The position numbers and the translations under genes are program-made. From Patescibacteria group bacterium (GTDB lineage: Bacteria > Patescibacteriota > Microgenomatia > Daviesbacterales > UBA10151), in contig DATDWU010000027.1 of NCBI GenBank assembly GCA_035289525.1, positions 1 through 38,867 of the forward strand: a DNA stretch of 38,867 nucleotides, written 5' to 3'. This document shows positions 20 to 31,368 of this stretch, piece by piece. Every line of letters begins with the position of its first letter. Positions within the stretch are counted from its first letter, which is position 1. The notes below the pieces were generated by a model. The model searched no databases. It saw only the letters and a program-made list of their open reading frames with translations, and had not been told where the DNA came from.

Positions 20-95
20 TGGCGCGCCCGGAGGGACTCGAACCCCCAACCGCGACGTCCGAAGCGTCGTGCTCTATCCATTAAGCTACGGGCGC
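20..95 (-). tRNA. tRNA-Arg, anticodon UCG, CCA encoded
   Basis: The reverse complement GCGCCCGTAGCTTAATGGATAGAGCACGACGCTTCGGACGTCGCGGTTGGGGGTTCGAGTCCCTCCGGGCGCGCCA is 76 nt and folds as a cloverleaf. Acceptor is GCGCCCG/CGGGCGC; anticodon arm is CGACG-CTTCGGA-CGTCG (UCG); T arm is GGGGG-TTCGAGT-CCCTC; then G73 and CCA. Confidence 0.9.
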
Positions 96-184
96 AAATT
101 ATATAGTTGCCCTCGCTTGCGAGATTTTCGCCATTATCAAAATCGATGTTTTGATAATGCTTCAATCTTTTAAGCTACGGGCGC
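96..184 (-). repeat. tRNA-Arg-derived pseudo-unit 1 (89 nt), directly upstream of the tRNA
   Basis: 16-nt identity ttaagctacgggcgca at 170-185 versus 81-96, which is the tRNA 5' acceptor/D start. It keeps a D-arm-like GCTT..AAGC, then a perfect 11-bp hairpin at 132-159 (cattatcaaaa/ttttgataatg), followed on the minus strand by GCGAA. The acceptor 3' strand is only partly complementary. Confidence 0.6.
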
Positions 185-274
185 ATTTTTTCAAAATGCT
201 TGTATCTTGCCGTAACTTCGCTACTATTGAAATATTCTTTTCAATAGTACTACGTTACGTAAAGCTACGGGCGC
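185..274 (-). repeat. tRNA-Arg-derived pseudo-unit 2 (90 nt)
   Basis: 16-nt identity aagctacgggcgcaaa at 262-277 versus 83-98. A perfect 11-bp hairpin at 222-248 (tactattgaaa/tttcaatagta) is nested in an outer stem cgtaac/gttacg (211-216/254-259). On the minus strand it is again followed by GCGAA. Confidence 0.6.
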
Positions 275-844: not shown

Positions 845-1576
845 ATGGCAGGCCCAAAGAAAAAAACTACAGTCAAAAAAACCGAACTTAAGGTAACCGC
901 ACCCCGGAAAACATCAAGAGCTAAGGCAGCCGCAGAGACTGAAGCTTCGTTTTTTGATTCGGCTGACCAAAGTCCCAAAAAGACAATTATCACAAAGAAA
1001 TATTTATATGCGGTGGTAGTTGTTTTAGCAGTAATCGGAGTTTTATTTACTGCCTCAAGGTTTTGGGTGATTGCCTGGGTTGATAATAAGCCGGTAACTA
1101 AATTCGAGCTTTATTCTCTTCTGGAAAGCCGCGATAAAGGAAAAACTTCGGAAGAGTTGATTGTTAATGCCCTGTTGAAGTCGGAAGGAGCAAAACAACG
1201 CCAATCGGTGGAGGAAGCCGAAATCGAGGAGGAAGTAAAAAAGATTGAATCAAACCAGGGTGGGGCGGAACAGCTTGACCAGATTCTTTCAATCAGAGGG
1301 CTGACCCGCGAAGACTTCCGGAAACTGGTTTCTCAGCAGTTATTAATCCAGAAATTGTTTGGTCAAGGTGTGAATATTACCGATGACGATGTTGCTAAAT
1401 TTATTGAATCGGAAAAAGCTTCTTTGGATCCCCAGGCTTTAGCTAACCCGGAAAGCTCGGAAGCAGCCAGGATGCGGGATGGAATAAAAGAACAGCTTAA
1501 GTGGAATAAGGTCAACGAAAACTACAATAACTGGTTAAAAGAGAATTTAAACGGCAGCCGGGTCAGCCGGAACTGA
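845..1576 (+). CDS. Membrane-anchored SurA N-terminal-domain-like chaperone (no PPIase domain seen)
   Basis: Lys-rich N-terminus, one TM helix (YLYAVVVVLAVIGVLF), then a SurA_N-like segment (VDNKPVTKFELYSLLE..QQLLIQKLFG). Confidence 0.45.
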   Translation: MAGPKKKTTVKKTELKVTAPRKTSRAKAAAETEASFFDSADQSPKKTIITKKYLYAVVVVLAVIGVLFTASRFWVIAWVDNKPVTKFELYSLLESRDKGKTSEELIVNALLKSEGAKQRQSVEEAEIEEEVKKIESNQGGAEQLDQILSIRGLTREDFRKLVSQQLLIQKLFGQGVNITDDDVAKFIESEKASLDPQALANPESSEAARMRDGIKEQLKWNKVNENYNNWLKENLNGSRVSRN

Positions 1577-2236
1577 TTTTTCCTTCAACTTTTTTTCAGG
1601 CACAGCAATTCCGGCCAGCAGTCCAAACGAAGTTCCGATCAAAAATCCTCCGGTAACGTCGGTAGTCCAATGCTCCCCCAAATAGATCCTGGAGACCGTC
1701 ATTAAAATTAATATTCCTGCCAGAATCGGCTGGGCAATAGTTTGGAAATATTTGCTTCGCCTGAAAGAGAAAAAACACATTAAAAAAACAATCAAAAAAG
1801 CAGTTCTTGTTTCGTGTCCGGAGGGGTAAGAATATAAATCATGAACAAAATATTTTGGGAATTGGATTTCGAGCACACCTCTGTAAAACATGAACGGAGG
1901 AGCAGGATGATGAACAAAAACCTTACCGAATATCTCAATGGCTAAGGCTAAAGGAAGAAGCAGGAGGGAGACTGCAGTCAGCCAAAATTTTCTAATAGCC
2001 ATTAAAATAAATAGTGTCAACCAAATTACACCGGTTACCTCGGCTGATCCTAAAACCGAAAACCAGGAAAAAAGATAGTCAAGCCGGCGTGGAATTCTAT
2101 CCTGGAATTTAACCGTTAAATCGAAATCAAGTTGGGTAAAAGTTTCCTTAGCCACAAGATACGAAAAGAATATAAACAGTATGAACAGGAAGGCTGCAAT
2201 TACAAACAAGAATTTCTTATTAAATATTTTTTTCAT
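1547..2236 (-). CDS. PAP2 family phosphatase (membrane)
   Basis: PAP2 motifs PSGHETR and SRIYLGEHWTTDVTGG, with multiple TM helices. Confidence 0.8.
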   Translation of the reverse strand: MKKIFNKKFLFVIAAFLFILFIFFSYLVAKETFTQLDFDLTVKFQDRIPRRLDYLFSWFSVLGSAEVTGVIWLTLFILMAIRKFWLTAVSLLLLPLALAIEIFGKVFVHHPAPPFMFYRGVLEIQFPKYFVHDLYSYPSGHETRTAFLIVFLMCFFSFRRSKYFQTIAQPILAGILILMTVSRIYLGEHWTTDVTGGFLIGTSFGLLAGIAVPEKKLKEKSVPADPAAV

Positions 2237-2298
2237 CCTTGATTTAAAACCATTAAACTATGTTACAGGAGAATAAAGGTTTCAGGCAAGTCACCTAC

Positions 2299-3090
2299 TT
2301 AACGGTTGCGCTCGTTGCGGACAAAAAGGTAAGTCCCGACAGAAAGCATGACTGTAAACAAGATGCTGATAACAATCAGGTTAACTAACGGGTGGTACAA
2401 AACGACATATTGGTAATCCGGTTGGCCCCAATAATAAAGTCCTCTGAAAAAATCCACCGCATAAGTCATTGGTGCCAGGCGCGAAAGTACTAAAATCGGC
2501 AAAGGCAACTCTTTAATCGGGTTAAAAACCCCGGCCAGAAAAAACTGGGGGAAAATTACAAAAGGGAAAAGTTGATTGGCGCTTCTCTGATTTCCTAAGG
2601 CAGCCATTACTAAAACCCCAAACGCCCCGCCTAATAAACAGGCGGCAATTATCGCTGGTGTTGCCAAAAGGAGCTGTGCCGTAGTAATAGCAATCGGGAA
2701 AAATAATCCCATGAATAAACCAAAAAAGACAACACCAACAGCCTGTACGAGCGATACTAACGACTCGCCTAATATTTTACCGAATATTATAGAATAACGG
2801 GAAATTGGGGAGACGAACATTTCCTGGGAAAAATCAGATTCCCGGTCCTGGATTAATGAGATGATTCCGGAAGCTGTGGACTGAAATAAGGTTTGAGCTA
2901 AAACTCCGGTAAAGGTAAAAGTTAAATAGTTAAAAGCAATAAATTGGCCAATATTAGATTGCAAGCTGGTTCCTAACGCACCAATAAAAATTATCGGAAA
3001 TATAAAGGAAATTACTAATCGGAAACGGTCCCTAAGCAGTTTGGTAAAGTCTCTTAGGGCAATAGTTAATATGGCGTTAATTTCCTTCAT
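2299..3090 (-). CDS. ABC-2 type transporter permease
   Basis: About six TM helices and an ABC-2 permease-like layout downstream of the ATPase. ATG at 3090 is preceded by GGAGG. The longer ORF-track start at 3144 overlaps the ATPase gene. Confidence 0.75.
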   Translation of the reverse strand: MKEINAILTIALRDFTKLLRDRFRLVISFIFPIIFIGALGTSLQSNIGQFIAFNYLTFTFTGVLAQTLFQSTASGIISLIQDRESDFSQEMFVSPISRYSIIFGKILGESLVSLVQAVGVVFFGLFMGLFFPIAITTAQLLLATPAIIAACLLGGAFGVLVMAALGNQRSANQLFPFVIFPQFFLAGVFNPIKELPLPILVLSRLAPMTYAVDFFRGLYYWGQPDYQYVVLYHPLVNLIVISILFTVMLSVGTYLFVRNERNR

Positions 3091-18940: not shown

Positions 18941-19492
18941 TTATGCTTTTGGCTCGAGGAGGACCCAATTTTTGGATACAGCGGGTTCGCTGCAGAGGTT
19001 GCGGTTAAAGCAGCAGGGGCGGCGCATTCCTTTATTGAGTTTATCGAGTGCAACTTCGATATGCTTTTTTCTTGTCTCCTCAGTTTTAACAGCGCGGATC
19101 CAGCGAATCCAGTCCCAGCGGGCCATTGGAGTGATATCTTTCCATAAAGCTTCAGCTTTAGGCGAAAAAGACAGTGCTTTTTTTAAATCAGCCGGCACTT
19201 CCGGCTCTATCCACTCTTTAGTCGGTTCAAGAGAAACTTCTACTGTGTCTCCGGAAGCGGCAGAAGCCTCATCAAGCAGCTTTTTATCAGGGGCAAACCA
19301 ATGGCTTGGTTTAAGTCCTGGTCCGTATCTACCATCCGGTTCAAGCAAAGTCTTAAAAGGCACGCCATTGATACTACCTTTAACCATTATCATGCCTCTG
19401 GATGGAAGTTTTGCCGAGGCATCTTCTGGTAGTTGAAGAATTGTCCAATCGCCAATTTTATAAAGTTTAGCTTCAAAAGAGATTGCCGGCAT
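18941..19492 (-). CDS. DUF1905 + YdeI/OmpD-associated family protein
   Basis: N-terminal FEAKLYKIGDWTILQLPED..GMIMVKGSINGVPFKTLLEPDG (DUF1905). C-terminal DWIRWIRAVKTEETRKKHIEVALDKL (YdeI-like). Confidence 0.7.
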   Translation of the reverse strand: MPAISFEAKLYKIGDWTILQLPEDASAKLPSRGMIMVKGSINGVPFKTLLEPDGRYGPGLKPSHWFAPDKKLLDEASAASGDTVEVSLEPTKEWIEPEVPADLKKALSFSPKAEALWKDITPMARWDWIRWIRAVKTEETRKKHIEVALDKLNKGMRRPCCFNRNLCSEPAVSKNWVLLEPKA

Positions 19493-19500
19493 AGGAAGAT

Positions 19501-19509
19501 ATTATATCA
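19501..19509 (-). promoter_or_regulatory. Extended -10 element (TGATATAAT), 8 nt from the ATG at 19492
   Basis: Minus strand reads TTGATATAATatcttcctATG. Confidence 0.4.
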
Positions 19510-19531
19510 AAGGCCCGAACTTGGTTTTGGA

Positions 19532-19577
19532 GTGACTGACGGGATAACACGCCCTTTTGCTTAAGCAAAAGGTGAAC
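19532..19577 (-). repeat. Copy A1: tRNA-His 3'-terminal 14 nt fused to a 32-nt hairpin segment
   Basis: gtgactgacgggataacacgcccttttgcttaagcaaaaggtgaac is 46/46 identical to 19657-19702. The first 14 nt equal the tRNA-His 3' end (19844-19857). It contains the 8-bp hairpin ccttttgc-ttaa-gcaaaagg. Confidence 0.8.
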
Positions 19578-19597
19578 CGGGATCGAAGATCCGCTTA

Positions 19598-19655
19598 AAA
19601 TCCCTTGCCAACCAACCCATAAAAAATCCTCCACAAGGGAGGAATTTTTTCTGGG
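19598..19655 (-). terminator. Copy B1 of the tRNA-His downstream flank, containing a bidirectional intrinsic-terminator hairpin
   Basis: aaatcccttgccaacca..aaaaaa-tcctcc-acaag-ggagga-atttttt. Hairpin at 19627-19643, flanked by A6 and T6. About 80% identical to 19786-19842. Confidence 0.6.
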
Positions 19656-19656
19656 G

Positions 19657-19702
19657 GTGACTGACGGGATAACACGCCCTTTTGCTTAAGCAAAAGGTGA
19701 AC
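19657..19702 (-). repeat. Copy A2: tRNA-His 3'-terminal block fused to the same 32-nt hairpin segment
   Basis: Identical to A1. With the preceding bases it shares 16 nt (gggtgactgacgggat) with the genuine tRNA 3' end. Confidence 0.8.
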
Positions 19703-19785
19703 TCTCTTCCTCTAACTACTACTTAATTTCTGAGGTTGTATTGAGGCATCAACGATCCATAGTTTTAACATTAAATCGCAGTTAT

Positions 19786-19842
19786 AAATCCCTTGCTAAC
19801 CACCACAAAAAAAGCCCTCCTAAAGGAGGACTTTTCTTTGTG
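19786..19842 (-). terminator. Copy B2: intrinsic terminator immediately downstream of tRNA-His
   Basis: Minus strand reads GTCCTCC-TTTA-GGAGGGC followed by TTTTTTT (plus strand 19806-19832). The flank is homologous to B1. Confidence 0.65.
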
Positions 19843-19915
19843 GGTGACTGACGGGATTTGAACCCGCAACCGTCGGTACCACAAACCGATGCTCTACCAT
19901 TGAGCTACAGCCACC
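19843..19915 (-). tRNA. tRNA-His, anticodon GUG, with encoded G-1 and no encoded CCA
   Basis: Minus strand reads G-GTGGCTG-TA-GCTC-AATGGTA-GAGC-A-TCGGT-TTGTGGT-ACCGA-CGGTT-GCGGG-TTCAAAT-CCCGT-CAGTCAC-C. The extra 5' G opposite C73 is the tRNA-His hallmark. Followed by CAC, not CCA. Confidence 0.9.
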
Positions 19916-20070: not shown

Positions 20071-20697
20071 ATGTTCGAACGTTTAAGAACTTTAAGAATC
20101 ATAGGAAGAGTCAGATTTACCAAACCCACACCGGCTGCAGGCGAATTTCAACCCTCTAAAGTAACGGAAGTTTATTTAGCTGCCGGTTATACTACTGATT
20201 TCTCTGAACCAGGTGGCATACCTAACCCTAACAAAACTCATCTAAAACAAAATCGGGGAGAAGCTTTGCTGGTTTTCTCCTGTAGCAACCGGATAGATGA
20301 AATAATTAAAGCTGCCAAAGGTTTTGCCCGAACAAGAAGTTTAACAACACGAGAACCTTCGGTAGTTGTTGTCCTTGGGGTTAATAGAGGTAATTTTTCC
20401 AGTTTCAATGGTGGGCTCAGAATGTATGATGCGCTAAATGCTTCCAATGGAAACGGGTGGAAAGCTGTGACAGACTTTAGTCAATTAGAACAGCCTTGCA
20501 GAGTAGCAATTGGCGCTAAAGAGTTAAGAAATAATATTGCACTTCTGGCTGCTGCCGGATGCGAAGTCAGGATAGCAGATCCTGTTAGTATTCCTGCGAC
20601 GTTGGCGGAATGCTTAGACGATAATAGTGGAATCAAACCGGCGCCTGCTTACCCCGATTTCGAAATTTGGTCACCTCCCCAACAAGACCCCCATTAA
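20071..20697 (+). CDS. Hypothetical protein (orphan)
   Basis: Intact 208-aa ORF behind a consensus promoter. No family recognised. Confidence 0.45.
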   Translation: MFERLRTLRIIGRVRFTKPTPAAGEFQPSKVTEVYLAAGYTTDFSEPGGIPNPNKTHLKQNRGEALLVFSCSNRIDEIIKAAKGFARTRSLTTREPSVVVVLGVNRGNFSSFNGGLRMYDALNASNGNGWKAVTDFSQLEQPCRVAIGAKELRNNIALLAAAGCEVRIADPVSIPATLAECLDDNSGIKPAPAYPDFEIWSPPQQDPH

Positions 20698-22472
20698 TTA
20701 GACCACGGCAGCAATTTCCAAAGTTCAACCGGTTTTAGAATTGCCGAGCGGATATCGGGCTGGAGCTCGCCAAAATCCAGTTTATTTTCTCCGGGTATAA
20801 TTTTTTGGTTAATGCTTTTAGGTTTGTAGTAAGGCTTTTCCAGGGTGAATAAATATTCCTGGTCAGGCAGTAAATATTTGGTTTCCAAATTGCCGGATTT
20901 GCCGGTGTTATCCAAAACAGCCTTAACATTGGTGCTTGAAAGCGCGTAACGGAGCTGTCCTAAAATTCCTAAAATATAATCGCCGCCGAAGGCTTTTTTC
21001 CATTTTAAGGAGGCCGATACCTGTAAATAAACCGGTGCTTTAACTTCAATATTTAACAGATTGTCGTTTGGGGTTAAGGGTTTTAGACCATTGAAGAGAT
21101 TAAAGGAAGTTTTGTATTCCCCTCCGGGTAGTCCGGAGACCGGGATATCAAATGAAATTTCCTGGCCGGGTTCAACAGTTTTATCCGCTCCGACTTCAAA
21201 ACGGGTTTTTTCAAAAGCCTCAGCCGTTCCGAAGACATTTAAGGCTGTATCGGAGTCTTTACCCCAGATAGTCTGGCCGGTGTTTTTAAAAGTCACCCGC
21301 ATGACGTAAGGCTCATTATAAGATAAGGTGACGGTTGTGCCGGATGAGGTGGCTTCGAAATAATTAGTGAAGCCTTCTTTTTCAATGGCCAATTTAATGA
21401 ACCTGGCAGACTCAGACTGCACCGGTTTGCCTTTTATTTTTTCGGCGTCCTGCAAAATATAAAAAGGAAGATGGTAATCTTTTTCGGCATTTGCCAGATT
21501 ACCGTTTTTCTTAAAAGAGAAATGGTCAAACGGCGGTTCCTGGTAGTTTAGTAGAAATGGTGTGACTGCAACTATCCGGTTGCTTGCCCAGGCGTTGTCG
21601 AAAGCCTGTTTATAATATTCTCCAACCTTATCAGGGTCAGGGAAACTGTTATCAACAGTGATGCCGTCCGAGTGCTTCCATCCGGTTTCCGTAATAAAAA
21701 CAGGTAAAACTTTTTTAACTCCGAGCCGGTTTAAGATCGACTGTTCCCATTCCCAGGTCCGTACGGTTCCGCGTCCGGCATCACCGGGTTTGCCTGAAAA
21801 ATTGGGATTTGGGTAAGAATGGGAAACCCAACCGTCAAATTTTTCAAAGATCCCGGGAATGGATGCATCCATCCGTTTCATAAACTCTTCCTGATCCATA
21901 TAAGCAGGTGGTTTGTTAGGGGCTGAGGCGTCAAATCCTGCATTTAAAACAAAAAAGTCATCAGATTTTTTCCGTAAAGCCTCAATGGTTCTATTGGTGC
22001 TGACGGCAAATCCTTCCGGATCAACAACACCGCCCCATTCCGAACCGTGGTTGGGTTCGTTATATAAAATTACATAGCGGTTTTTAACCGGCCAAACCAG
22101 TTTATCTAAAAAATCCGCCCAGGCTGTGCCCTCGTCTTCGTAAGGCCGTTCCCAGTTACCGTTATCGGGTTTAGTAGCCAGCCTGACAATCGGGATTAAA
22201 TGACGGCGGCGGAGTTCATTAAAAAATTCCTGCCATTTTTGTTCGTTCCGGTCGCTGGACTCAGCAAGAACTGTGATATAACCCCAATCGCCGTTATTAT
22301 TAACCAGTCTCGCCGCCTCCGAAGCTTCGTCCCTCGTTGCCGAGATGATGTGGATTCCATATTTGTTATTCGGGACCGCGCGGGGATCACTGATTGCCTT
22401 TACGGAAGTAACAAGATACAAGAAACAGGATACAAACAAAATGGAAGCAAAAAGCAGGCTAAATAATTTCAT
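20694..22472 (-). CDS. Secreted glycoside hydrolase, clan GH-A TIM barrel (GH5-like), with a C-terminal beta-rich extension
   Basis: Signal peptide MKLFSLLFASILFVSCFLYLVTSVKA. Acid/base motif YNEPNHGSEW and nucleophile motif VFITETGW. Confidence 0.55.
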   Translation of the reverse strand: MKLFSLLFASILFVSCFLYLVTSVKAISDPRAVPNNKYGIHIISATRDEASEAARLVNNNGDWGYITVLAESSDRNEQKWQEFFNELRRRHLIPIVRLATKPDNGNWERPYEDEGTAWADFLDKLVWPVKNRYVILYNEPNHGSEWGGVVDPEGFAVSTNRTIEALRKKSDDFFVLNAGFDASAPNKPPAYMDQEEFMKRMDASIPGIFEKFDGWVSHSYPNPNFSGKPGDAGRGTVRTWEWEQSILNRLGVKKVLPVFITETGWKHSDGITVDNSFPDPDKVGEYYKQAFDNAWASNRIVAVTPFLLNYQEPPFDHFSFKKNGNLANAEKDYHLPFYILQDAEKIKGKPVQSESARFIKLAIEKEGFTNYFEATSSGTTVTLSYNEPYVMRVTFKNTGQTIWGKDSDTALNVFGTAEAFEKTRFEVGADKTVEPGQEISFDIPVSGLPGGEYKTSFNLFNGLKPLTPNDNLLNIEVKAPVYLQVSASLKWKKAFGGDYILGILGQLRYALSSTNVKAVLDNTGKSGNLETKYLLPDQEYLFTLEKPYYKPKSINQKIIPGENKLDFGELQPDIRSAILKPVELWKLLPWSN

Positions 22473-22499: not shown

Positions 22500-22769
22500 C
22501 TAGCGGTAAGTATGCTTATCCTTTTTCTTTAAATTAACAGGTATTATTCCGTTATCGTTAATGACATAAAAAAGTCGATGCGAATCACCGACCCAAACCC
22601 TTCTTTGCTCTTGTTCTTTAGCAGCAATCCTTTTTCCTTCAAAGGGGTTGATCTTTAATTTTTCAAATGTATGTCGAAGCTTTTTCTCGATAGATCGGTC
22701 TTTTTTATATAATTTCTTAGCAATTTCTAAGAAAGTTGGGGTGATTACTATTTTAAATCCTAAGTCCAC
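22500..22769 (-). CDS. Type II toxin, RelE/ParE superfamily
   Basis: Pattern ITPTF..AKKL..IEKKL...EKLKINPFEGKRI...RRVWVGDSHRLFYVI..N.IIPVNL..KDKHTY matches the RelE/ParE consensus (..RvGdYRliY.i...i.i..i..R...Y). Confidence 0.65.
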   Translation of the reverse strand: MDLGFKIVITPTFLEIAKKLYKKDRSIEKKLRHTFEKLKINPFEGKRIAAKEQEQRRVWVGDSHRLFYVINDNGIIPVNLKKKDKHTYR

Positions 22770-22781
22770 TTTTATAAAACA

Positions 22782-23021
22782 TTACTTCTTTAATTTGTCA
22801 AAAAATTCTTCTTCGCTAAGATGTTCTCCTTTTTTATATTCATTCATAATAATACCAAGAACCTTACCGTCTTCGGCCGTTAATTTTTCATCCGAAGTTA
22901 ATTCATTCCAGTTATATGGTGATGGAATAGAGGTTTCTTGAGTAATAACAAACTCGTTGACGTTCTCAGTAAATTTTAGTCTGTTTTTATATTCTTCTGG
23001 TATGGTAATAATTTGAGTCAT
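22782..23021 (-). CDS. Putative cognate antitoxin (unclassified)
   Basis: 79-aa acidic ORF, 12 nt upstream of the toxin gene. Its start overlaps the upstream gene's stop (ATGA). No recognised DNA-binding motif. Confidence 0.35.
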   Translation of the reverse strand: MTQIITIPEEYKNRLKFTENVNEFVITQETSIPSPYNWNELTSDEKLTAEDGKVLGIIMNEYKKGEHLSEEEFFDKLKK

Positions 23022-23275
23022 TTTTGTATATCCTTTGCGATTCTTCTTTGTCGTAATAAAGCTTCTAAAATATCAGATAATTGTTGGGCTGTGACATGAG
23101 AAATAACTACTCTATTTGTTAAAATTGCCTGTCCGTTTGGAACGTTTAATACAAAATCAAGAACAACCTCTTGATCGCTGGCATTTATGCTTACAATATT
23201 TGCATAGGACCCTTGTCCGACTGAATCAGGTATTCTTATTGCTAGTTGTTGAGTGGCAGGTTTCTTCTGATCCAT
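23018..23275 (-). CDS. DUF3467 family protein
   Basis: GQGSYANIVSINASDQEVVLDFV..ILTNRVVISHVTAQQL matches the DUF3467 pattern (..YAN....t..EF.LDF..). Confidence 0.55.
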   Translation of the reverse strand: MDQKKPATQQLAIRIPDSVGQGSYANIVSINASDQEVVLDFVLNVPNGQAILTNRVVISHVTAQQLSDILEALLRQRRIAKDIQK

Positions 23276-31024: not shown

Positions 31025-31088
31025 GCACGCCCGGAGGGATTAAGATCGCTTCGCTAACCTTCCCTCGCTCCGCGAGGTCGAACTAGCT
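31025..31088 (-). repeat. tRNA-sized remodelled partial copy of tRNA-Arg(UCU) that retains the exact 3'-terminal 17 nt
   Basis: gcacgcccggagggatt at 31025-31041 is identical to 31225-31241, at an offset of exactly 200 bp. The upstream part (minus strand) contains the hairpin CCTCGC-GGA-GCGAGG and an AGCT.GTTCGA D-like stretch. Confidence 0.6.
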
Positions 31089-31184
31089 TTCTAATTAAAA
31101 ATCCCTGCTGACTCTGATTAAATTAAATTATGTTACTTTTGAAGACTTCTGGGTTAAATCGCTGTTGGAATTCTCTTGGGAGTT

Positions 31185-31224: not shown

Positions 31225-31225
31225 G

Positions 31226-31298
31226 CACGCCCGGAGGGATTCGAACCCCCGACCTAAACGTTAGAACCGTCTTGCTCTATCCACTGAGCTACGGGCGC
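31226..31298 (-). tRNA. tRNA-Arg, anticodon UCU, no encoded CCA
   Basis: Minus strand reads GCGCCCG-TA-GCTC-AGTGGATA-GAGC-A-AGACG-GTTCTAA-CGTTT-AGGTC-GGGGG-TTCGAAT-CCCTC-CGGGCGT-G. There is a G1-U72 wobble and an unusual G32. Followed by CAG. Confidence 0.8.
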
Positions 31299-31368
31299 TT
31301 TCATTCATGCGCTGGAGCGAAGTGGAGAGGCGAGTCATTGAAGTCTCATCCACATAAGCTACGTGCGC
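31299..31368 (-). pseudogene. Decayed 70-nt tRNA-Arg-like copy directly upstream of tRNA-Arg(UCU)
   Basis: On the minus strand, GCGCACGTAGCTTATGTGGATGAGAC matches the tRNA 5' 26 nt at about 21 positions. The 3' part TCGCTCCAGCGCA resembles TCCCTCCGGGCGT. No foldable cloverleaf. Confidence 0.5.

Follow-up and report, generated by a model that had tools for sequence, protein, structure and literature searches.

Diverged copies of a hairpin-bearing module downstream of a Patescibacteria tRNA-His gene as a possible footprint of site-specific insertion

A 38,867-nucleotide stretch of DNA from an uncultured, ultra-small Patescibacteria group bacterium (GenBank assembly GCA_035289525.1, contig DATDWU010000027.1; the whole stretch is called the window below) carries a tRNA-His gene whose 3'-terminal block is repeated twice downstream, ahead of a gene for a DUF1905/OmdA protein. 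The two intervals delimited by these blocks, which had been taken for two stacked mini-elements of 187 and 125 bp, are diverged copies of a single module of about 125 nt, and the explanation that we favour, with a probability of roughly 40%, is that the array is an old, vertically inherited footprint of a site-specific insertion at the tRNA 3' end that was later duplicated and deleted via its repeated cores. Partial tRNA copies beside tRNA genes are the standard signature for mapping integrated mobile DNA. This locus shows the integration signature at a scale of 125–187 bp and with no integrase, in copies that are duplicated and deleted through their own core and conserved as hairpin modules among related genomes. 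The locus is of a known kind, that of attachment-site (att)-type repeats made of partial tRNA; what is unusual is that it is miniature, that its structure is conserved and that it recurs at all the tRNA genes in view.

The tRNA-His gene (anticodon GTG) is called on the minus strand by ARAGORN and by Rfam (RF00005, 69.1 bits), and the array is read on the same strand (Table 1). The core block, ATCCCGTCAGTCAC, which corresponds to tRNA-His positions 58-71, namely the end of the T loop, the 3' strand of the T stem and the 3' strand of the acceptor stem, occurs in three exact direct copies at 19857-19844, 19670-19657 and 19545-19532, with 0.1 expected in shuffled sequences. The spacing is 187 nt from copy 1 to copy 2 and 125 nt from copy 2 to copy 3. 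Core copies 2 and 3 are each directly preceded by an exact copy of a 31-nt hairpin segment (two copies, 0 expected) that includes a perfect 20-nt palindrome, CCTTTTGCTTAAGCAAAAGG, and the 46-nt junctions at 19532-19577 and 19657-19702 are 100% identical. Flanks B2 and B1, which follow core copies 1 and 2, both have the G+C-rich hairpin and subsequent T run of a Rho-independent terminator; the intrinsic-terminator pattern is matched by B1 on both strands and by B2 on the plus strand, with a run of seven T on the minus strand. Core copy 3 is followed by TTGATATAAT (19510-19501), 8 nt ahead of the ATG of the DUF1905/OmdA gene, which was assigned by Pfam. The layout given in the original prediction, with tRNA-His, terminator flanks, hairpin segments, three cores and the promoter of the next gene, is recovered in full, and pattern search and alignment verify both the threefold 14-16 nt block and the identity of the junctions. 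The homology of B1 and B2 is also borne out, at values slightly lower than the proposed 80% or so: 77% with gaps (48/62) and 71% without gaps over 76 nt.

Aligned pairwise from core to core, the 187-nt period and the 125-nt one share 88% identity across 124 columns, along their whole length, and two insertions (~19759-19781 and ~19703-19744) are present in the 187-nt period and absent from unit 2. The two supposed elements are paralogues, diverged copies of one ~125-nt module, so that the 84 nt earlier described as unique sequence are not unique. The module consists, in order, of the tRNA 3' block (from position 58 as far as the discriminator), an intrinsic terminator, a block-complementary stretch, a small hairpin, an 8-bp perfect hairpin, a degenerate 5' strand of the T arm and the block again. 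The block-complementary stretch, or anticore (GGTGGTTAGCAAGGGATTT in unit 1 and GGTTGGTTGGCAAGGGATTT in unit 2), forms several G-U pairs with the core and bears a likeness to the 5' strand of tRNA-His, that of unit 1 resembling the 5' acceptor strand. The small hairpin, GGATC-TTC-GATCC, is degenerate in the long copy, and GCGTG-TT before the distal core is a degenerate T-arm 5' strand from which three T-loop bases are missing. A single unequal exchange between cores explains the stack, and two integrations are not needed. The small hairpin of unit 2 together with the bases that follow it (TTCGATCCCGGTTCACC, 19587-19571) may, from its sequence, be an older, degenerate tRNA-His 3' end.

In the favoured explanation, foreign DNA would have recombined into the T-loop/acceptor part of tRNA-His in a Levybacteria-like ancestor, most likely in a site-specific event of the tyrosine-integrase type. 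The incoming DNA would have provided a new tRNA 3' end and a terminator, and the original 3' fragment would have been displaced downstream while remaining joined to the DUF1905 gene, next to which it had lain from the start. The inserted DNA would later have been lost almost entirely, giving rise to a one-module state; a one-module state is present in two relatives (L019 and L020, described below) and in one population of this species. The two-module state would have arisen by recombination between two chromosomes or alleles, joining the distal core of one to the tRNA core of the other. Such an exchange at the 14-16-nt core, whether an unequal crossover or a site-specific one, would juxtapose two diverged versions of the module, and the 46-nt hairpin-plus-core may then have been held identical through gene conversion or selection. 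The reverse exchange, between the 46-nt repeats, would yield a precise 125-nt deletion allele, and such an allele is seen. The units, being amplified and deleted recombination footprints in this scheme, would therefore not be two independently integrated mobile mini-elements.

The topology, the block boundaries and the position of the distal copy beside the original neighbour fit the footprint of an insertion by an integrase. A tRNA gene (tDNA) accompanied by a displaced 3' fragment is a mark of integrase-driven insertion, the crossover subsites of tRNA-targeting tyrosine integrases lie in the anticodon loop, in the T loop and at the T/acceptor junction, tandem arrays occur, and 5' fragments, which are rarer than 3' ones, are found in 159/3919 islands (PMC4383910). 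In islands seeded by a tRNA, scattered partial tRNAs have been interpreted as what earlier integrations left behind (bioRxiv 10.1101/2020.12.28.424599; PMC9897764). As in the islands and prophages that target tRNA genes (Islander criteria; Williams 2002; Hudson et al. 2015, PMC4383910), an intact tRNA is combined here with direct repeats of its end, a 3' fragment lies downstream, and the fragment has its start at a T-loop or T/acceptor-junction subsite; such islands are known to stack at one tRNA, and their 5'-fragment cases are comparable with the tRNA-Arg genes of the window. Unlike them, the locus has no integrase and no cargo, its spacing is 125-187 bp and not kilobases, its two 'islands' are paralogous, and its distal copies are short of three T-loop bases. 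Of the features that define an island for Islander, the cognate fragment in direct orientation downstream and the boundary at T-loop position 58 are present and the integrase is absent. Of the serial integration originally proposed, the core-unit-core-unit-core topology and the boundary at a crossover subsite therefore stand, and the two different elements do not, since the units are paralogous.

Comparison of populations of the same species shows both the stability of the array and the loss of one unit. With the two flanking proteins, same-species loci were found in ~13 ENA assemblies, plus one Logan contig that does not span the interval. From the tRNA start to the ATG, the 15 full-length loci from the ~13 ENA assemblies agree base for base over 426 nt. 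Contig k141_2285098 of ERZ27254846 lacks exactly 125 nt, and the end-points of the deletion fall in the 46-nt perfect repeat; therefore, ordinary homologous deletion suffices to explain it. The presence/absence polymorphism for which the original prediction recommended looking is thus observed, both as the 125-nt unit missing from ERZ27254846 and as a variable interval among relatives. An assembly artefact, which would have undone the prediction, is ruled out by the 426-nt identity in 15 loci from ~13 independent assemblies made with at least two pipelines. Nothing speaks for such an artefact except the general risk of repeats in metagenome assemblies, and the 46-nt repeat is well under the k of 141 that the prefix 'k141' in the majority of contig names indicates.

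The DUF1905 protein has homologues whose sources name them Candidatus Levybacteria or Patescibacteria. In two relatives, L019 (Logan SRR13076504) and L020 (GCA_964406775.1), a near-identical tRNA-His is followed by one orthologous module, by the gene of a 198-aa ORFan and by DUF1905; the module is old and vertically inherited. Between tRNA-His and the DUF1905 gene, the interval is ~720 nt, including the ORFan gene, in L019 and L020, and in the present species it is 301 or 426 nt when measured from the tRNA start to the ATG. In the more distant L018, whose tRNA-His sequence differs, the tRNA ends 22 nt from the DUF1905 ATG and the terminator and the repeat are both absent, an arrangement that resembles an empty site. 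In L026 (ENA ERZ27252334 k141_3613990), ~2 kb and two ORFan genes lie between tRNA-His and DUF1905. DUF1905 is downstream of tRNA-His in 5/9 lineages examined and not near tRNA-His in four other relatives. Because its content varies among relatives, the interval downstream of tRNA-His is a long-standing hot spot.

The modules of L019 and L020 are 91% identical, with the differences concentrated in the hairpins, and in both of them the complementary stretch (ACGGGATTT) spans 9 nt and is perfectly reverse-complementary to tRNA positions 56-64. When the window is compared with L020, conservation is much higher in the 3' half of the module than in the terminator flank. The hairpin reads CCTTTTGC-TTAA-GCAAAAGG in the window, CCTTTTTGC-CAAA-GCAAAAAGG in L020 and CCTTTTCC-GAAG-GAAAAGG in L019. 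The three forms differ by one double substitution (G:C to C:G), one extra T:A pair and different loops, and the pairing is intact in all of them; this covariation comprises four sequences from three lineages, so that its statistics are weak, and the MAFFT alignment mis-registers the L020 hairpin.

A degenerate block resembling the tRNA 3' end (ATTTCCCGTTAACTCACC) lies 23 nt ahead of the DUF1905 ATG in L019 and L020. The 198-aa ORFan gene (3439-4035 in L019 and 3352-3948 in L020) is situated between the distal core of the module and this block, and has the look of a cassette of one gene with core copies at its borders; homologues of the ORFan were found in just one other cluster among 5.8 billion proteins, in an unrelated context. 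In L026, the region 870-3000 has repeats of its own, consisting of the terminator flank three times, the hairpin CTAAACCACCTGGAGGGTGG four times (twice within a tandem repeat of 55 nt) and, at 1983, one copy of the tRNA 3' end, and the two ORFan genes are interleaved with these repeated modules. All DUF1905/OmdA homologues (nine loci, among L017-L026) have TGnTA(A/T)AAT ~8 nt ahead of the ATG, which would imply that their mRNAs are leaderless or near-leaderless. The DUF1905/OmdA gene is 80-92% identical across many genomes of the candidate phyla radiation (CPR), and its neighbourhoods differ.

The feature is not peculiar to tRNA-His, since copies of partial tRNA ends with hairpins are found at all three tRNA genes of the window. 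The two tandem units upstream of tRNA-Arg(TCG), U-a and U-b, each begin with the first 13-15 nt of this gene and adopt the same rod-like hairpin fold (z = -5.0 and -4.5), with a 12-bp apical stem, a bulged G and a 6-nt loop, followed by GCGAA. The module downstream of tRNA-Arg(TCT) contains a stretch, AGCAGGGATTT, complementary to AATCCC and a 17-nt exact tRNA copy that starts at position 58, as the tRNA-His core does; this copy lies ~185 nt past the gene and directly adjoins TTGATA-17-TATACT (31009-30981), which is the next gene's promoter. Right after tRNA-Arg(TCT) stands an AT-rich hairpin of 40 nt (31224-31185). On the other side of this gene, the U-c leader begins with GCGCACGTAGCTTA, a near-copy of the 5' end and D arm of tRNA-Arg that is nearer to tRNA-Arg(TCG) than to tRNA-Arg(TCT), and the extended -10 element ahead of the leader is strong, the gap between them being ~7-10 nt. 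A motif, GGTTGGCA..GRATCTT (also written GGTTGGCA..G(A/G)ATCTTCGAT), occurs on the minus strand at 281-300 and 19580-19617 (2 matches vs 0.03 expected) and is common to the flank that lies upstream of the units at tRNA-Arg(TCG) and to unit 2 of the array at tRNA-His. A related sequence, GGTTAGCGAAGCGATCTT, stands immediately ahead of the core in the tRNA-Arg(TCT) module.

Table 1. Coordinates of the features at the three tRNA genes of the window
Feature	Position	Strand	Description
tRNA-His (GTG)	19842..19914	-	last 14-16 nt (19857-19842) are core copy 1
Flank B2	19806..19831	-	terminator hairpin GTCCTCC-TTTA-GGAGGGC, then T7; plus-strand terminator-like match at 19816-19829
Unit 1 anticore, GGTGGTTAGCAAGGGATTT	19786..19804	-	complementary to tRNA 3' end and core, G-U pairs included (folds, alignment)
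Unit 1 interior	19703..19781	-	degenerate small hairpin GGATCGTTGATGCC (19758-19745) between insertions 19781-19759 and 19744-19703
Hairpin segment, copy 1, TTCACCTTTTGCTTAAGCAAAAGGGCGTGTT	19671..19701	-	8-bp perfect hairpin (palindrome 19697-19678), then degenerate T-arm 5' strand GCGTG-TT
Core copy 2, ATCCCGTCAGTCACCC	19655..19670	-	tRNA positions 58-73
Flank B1	19621..19644	-	bidirectional intrinsic terminator TCCTCCCTTGTGGAGGA and T6
Unit 2 anticore, GGTTGGTTGGCAAGGGATTT	19598..19617	-	16-bp closing helix with core copy 3 in the minimum-free-energy fold (z = -2.9)
Unit 2 small hairpin, GGATC-TTC-GATCC	19580..19592	-	kept in L019 and L020
Hairpin segment, copy 2	19546..19576	-	identical to copy 1
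Core copy 3, ATCCCGTCAGTCAC	19532..19545	-	directly adjoins the upstream region of the DUF1905 gene
Extended -10, TTGATATAAT, and 8 nt to the ATG (19492)	19492..19510	-	DUF1905/OmdA gene at 18941-19492
tRNA-Arg(TCG)	95..20	-	two tandem 89-nt units upstream: U-a 274..186, U-b 184..96
tRNA-Arg(TCT)	31298..31225	-	downstream module at 31025..31109
tRNA-Arg(TCT) module	31025..31109	-	AGCAGGGATTT (31109-31099), hairpin CCTCGCGGAGCGAGG (31077-31063), 17-nt exact copy of tRNA 58-74 (31041-31025)
U-c leader, 70 nt	31299..31368	-	between promoter TTGATATAAT (31387-31378) and tRNA-Arg(TCT); begins with GCGCACGTAGCTTA

Several results weigh against an insertion footprint. Pfam finds no integrase, transposase or other recombinase domain in the ~45 open reading frames (ORFs) of the 38.9-kb window, in agreement with the original prediction as regards the integrase, and no full-size element with these ends was found in viral, genome and metagenome collections. 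A strictly empty site within this species was not seen among the same-species loci compared. The distal copies read TT-AT in the T loop in place of TTCAAAT, and because this 3-nt deletion is shared with L019 and L020, the T-loop overlap region is incomplete in the distal copies. That the 46-nt block is 100% identical while the flanks are at ~77% has to be accounted for by a further assumption, either gene conversion or selection. The hairpin has been maintained through compensatory changes in three lineages, as neutral scars would not be. Between U-a and U-b, 8 of the 19 pairs are changed on both sides and none is broken, and both units have the same length of 89 nt; random deletion remnants do not explain this equal length and these eight compensatory pairs. 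The compensatory hairpins, the equal-length tRNA-Arg(TCG) units and the presence of modules at three tRNA genes are together awkward for inert scars.

These last observations speak for the main alternative, a serious though less likely one, in which the modules are functional structures and not scars. They could act as RNA, as a pre-tRNA trailer or leader or as a small RNA that mimics a tRNA end, or as a DNA hairpin or cruciform site. In the RNA version, a closing helix would pair the tRNA-end copy with its complement and enclose one or two hairpins, and the modules would be kept near tRNA genes by selection, for instance as processing, decoy or insulator structures before the next promoter. 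A functional role is suggested by the compensatory changes, those at tRNA-Arg(TCG) suggesting it more strongly than those at tRNA-His. Consistently, the 3' half of the module is the better conserved part between the window and L020, the motif in the tRNA-His and tRNA-Arg(TCG) flanks is shared, and unit 2 folds better than shuffled sequences (z = -2.9), whereas unit 1 (z = -0.6) and the tRNA-Arg(TCT) module (z = -0.2) fold no better than shuffles. No Rfam family matches the modules: with Rfam 15, only the three tRNAs of the window pass the gathering score, and at E <= 10 over all three tRNA flanks the tRNA model misses the units and the sub-threshold matches remain far below gathering. ARAGORN does not call the units tRNA at relaxed (75%) thresholds. 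A promoter of their own is not evident, and they are positioned downstream of terminators. The hairpins are all Watson-Crick, with no G-U pairs, and so fit DNA palindromes or bidirectional terminators better than a purely RNA role, and self-templated repair of quasi-palindromes can imitate compensatory change. In addition, one population lacks a unit and L018 lacks any module.

A tentative and unlikely extension is that modules of 70-190 nt stand systematically beside tRNA genes in this CPR lineage and form an undescribed class, each carrying a 13-17-nt exact copy of the 5' or 3' end of its own tRNA, a complementary stretch and one or two compensatorily kept hairpins. Members of such a class could be non-autonomous site-specific elements moved in trans that copy host-tRNA ends. 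Alternatively, they could be tRNA-end-mimicking RNAs or DNA hairpins involved in tRNA transcription, processing or promoter insulation.

Duplication or triplication of tRNA-His with its terminator in tandem, followed by decay to pseudo-tRNAs whose 3' ends were gene-converted, would require no mobile DNA, and we consider it improbable. It agrees with the fact that every period starts with the tRNA 3' end and a homologous terminator, and with the resemblance of the stretch after the terminator to the 5' acceptor strand and D arm of tRNA-His (GGTGGTTAGCAAGGG vs GGTGGCTGTAGCTCAATGG). The degenerate T-arm 5' strand before the distal cores likewise matches at 6/7 positions (GCGTGTT vs GCGGGTT), and U-b and U-c retain ~26 nt of tRNA-Arg-like acceptor and D-arm sequence. 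However, the interior has no detectable similarity to an anticodon arm or variable region, Rfam and ARAGORN see no tRNA in it, and neutral decay does not yield perfect hairpins of 8-12 bp kept by compensation. The L018 tRNA has no terminator hairpin before DUF1905, so that the terminator and the hairpins look like added DNA, and the copy boundaries match the T loop and the gene ends in two different tRNAs.

The searches for a recombinase, a parent element or other copies bear on the original prediction itself, namely that two non-autonomous, att-ended mini-elements of 125 and 187 bp integrated serially and were mobilised in trans by an integrase whose gene lies elsewhere, for which we hold the chances to be poor. 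The arrangement of core, element, core, element, core, the presence or absence of the 125-nt unit among populations and the related modules of defined size at other tRNA genes are what such elements would leave. Cis-mobilizable elements (CIMEs), which are att-flanked and have no integrase, are a described concept in the literature on integrative and conjugative elements (ICEs) as well as integrative and mobilizable ones (IMEs). Against mini-elements, the two units are paralogous along their whole length, the module is vertically inherited in relatives, homologous deletion at the 46-nt repeat suffices for the 125-nt loss, and the ORFs of the window include no integrase. Double-stranded DNA circles of 125 bp are, moreover, sterically very unfavourable. 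The 125-bp and 187-bp intervals contain no ORF, so that there is no tyrosine integrase gene between the tDNA and the fragment; the genes of the window are ordinary chromosomal genes, and Pfam finds no recombinase among the ORFan 'cargo' genes of the relatives.

Dispersed copies are also missing from the window and from the collections searched. The further copies of the hairpin segment that the prediction led one to seek were found neither in the window nor in species genomes, JGI metagenomes or IMG/VR. The exact 20-nt palindrome has 0 matches in IMG/VR and 6 chance matches in 185,579 species genomes, all in unrelated terminators or coding sequence of Firmicutes and Bacteroidales. A degenerate hairpin-core pattern built from the three lineages has 0 matches in IMG/VR and 2 in JGI metagenomes, both by chance and inside genes. 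Old age and vertical inheritance, combined with hairpin-preserving substitutions, are not what one would predict for a recently mobile element or for an inert scar. The 19-mer of the tRNA-His 3' end retrieves from IMG/VR phage tRNA arrays and one classical 44-nt att pair, and no CPR element. This pair is on an unrelated high-GC isolate contig, IMGVR_UViG_2600255093_000008 (L039 8520-8538, L046 3882-3900), which holds two direct 44-nt copies of the 3' half of a tRNA-His, each reaching from the anticodon loop as far as the 3' end; a full tRNA is called at neither of them, and their length contrasts with the 14-16-nt cores of the present locus.

Other known systems share part of these features. 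CIMEs also have att-like direct repeats around integrase-less DNA, and att recombination or accretion can add or remove their units; however, CIMEs have kilobase sizes and a demonstrable origin in a known ICE or IME, and no parent was found here in the viral, genome and metagenome scans. The tycheposon islands of Prochlorococcus (Hackl et al., bioRxiv 10.1101/2020.12.28.424599) resemble the locus in the streamlined genome, the tRNA seed, partial copies interpreted as traces of earlier integrations, and tRNA-adjacent content that varies among relatives and includes ORFan genes, as in L019, L020 and L026. In contrast to tycheposons, no integrase-bearing element was seen at the sites studied here, and the remnants are compact, structured and conserved between genomes. 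As in integron attC sites, pairing and not sequence is conserved, the hairpins stand at short-core junctions, and single-gene 'cassettes' adjoin them in relatives, but direct reading shows no RYYYAAC/GTTRRRY core sites, and there is no integron integrase and no cassette array. Miniature inverted-repeat transposable elements, repetitive extragenic palindromes (REP) and bacterial interspersed mosaic elements are likewise short, hairpin-forming, non-coding and intergenic. Unlike them, the modules have no copies beyond the cognate tRNA, each unit bears the end of its own tRNA, and the usual terminal inverted repeats and target-site duplication are lacking. Integron attC, IS200/IS605 or REP hairpin ends, group IIC intron relics after terminators, type III antitoxin repeats, guide-like repeats of CRISPR-associated transposons or TnpB, and a sigma-54 promoter in the GGCAAGGGATTT motif were each rejected, since direct reading shows their defining features to be absent.

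If the footprint reading is true, the locus is a record of integrative-element traffic and strong deletion pressure in the CPR, where few mobile elements are known, and sites like it will be overlooked or misread by tools that search for islands. Should the modules be functional instead, they would be structured, tRNA-linked elements of a new kind in a major uncultured radiation.

Two lineage-specific genes without a Pfam domain lie upstream of tRNA-His, within 20071-22472. One, divergent from tRNA-His, encodes a 208-aa protein for which the entire protein collection holds a single homologue (83%), whose contig stops short of the tRNA. The other encodes 592 aa and has a weak sub-threshold match to GH5. 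A ParE-toxin-family gene, which has a small partner upstream, and a DUF3467 gene are located ~3 kb from tRNA-His (22500-22769 and 23018-23275); no other gene of the window is addiction-module-like.

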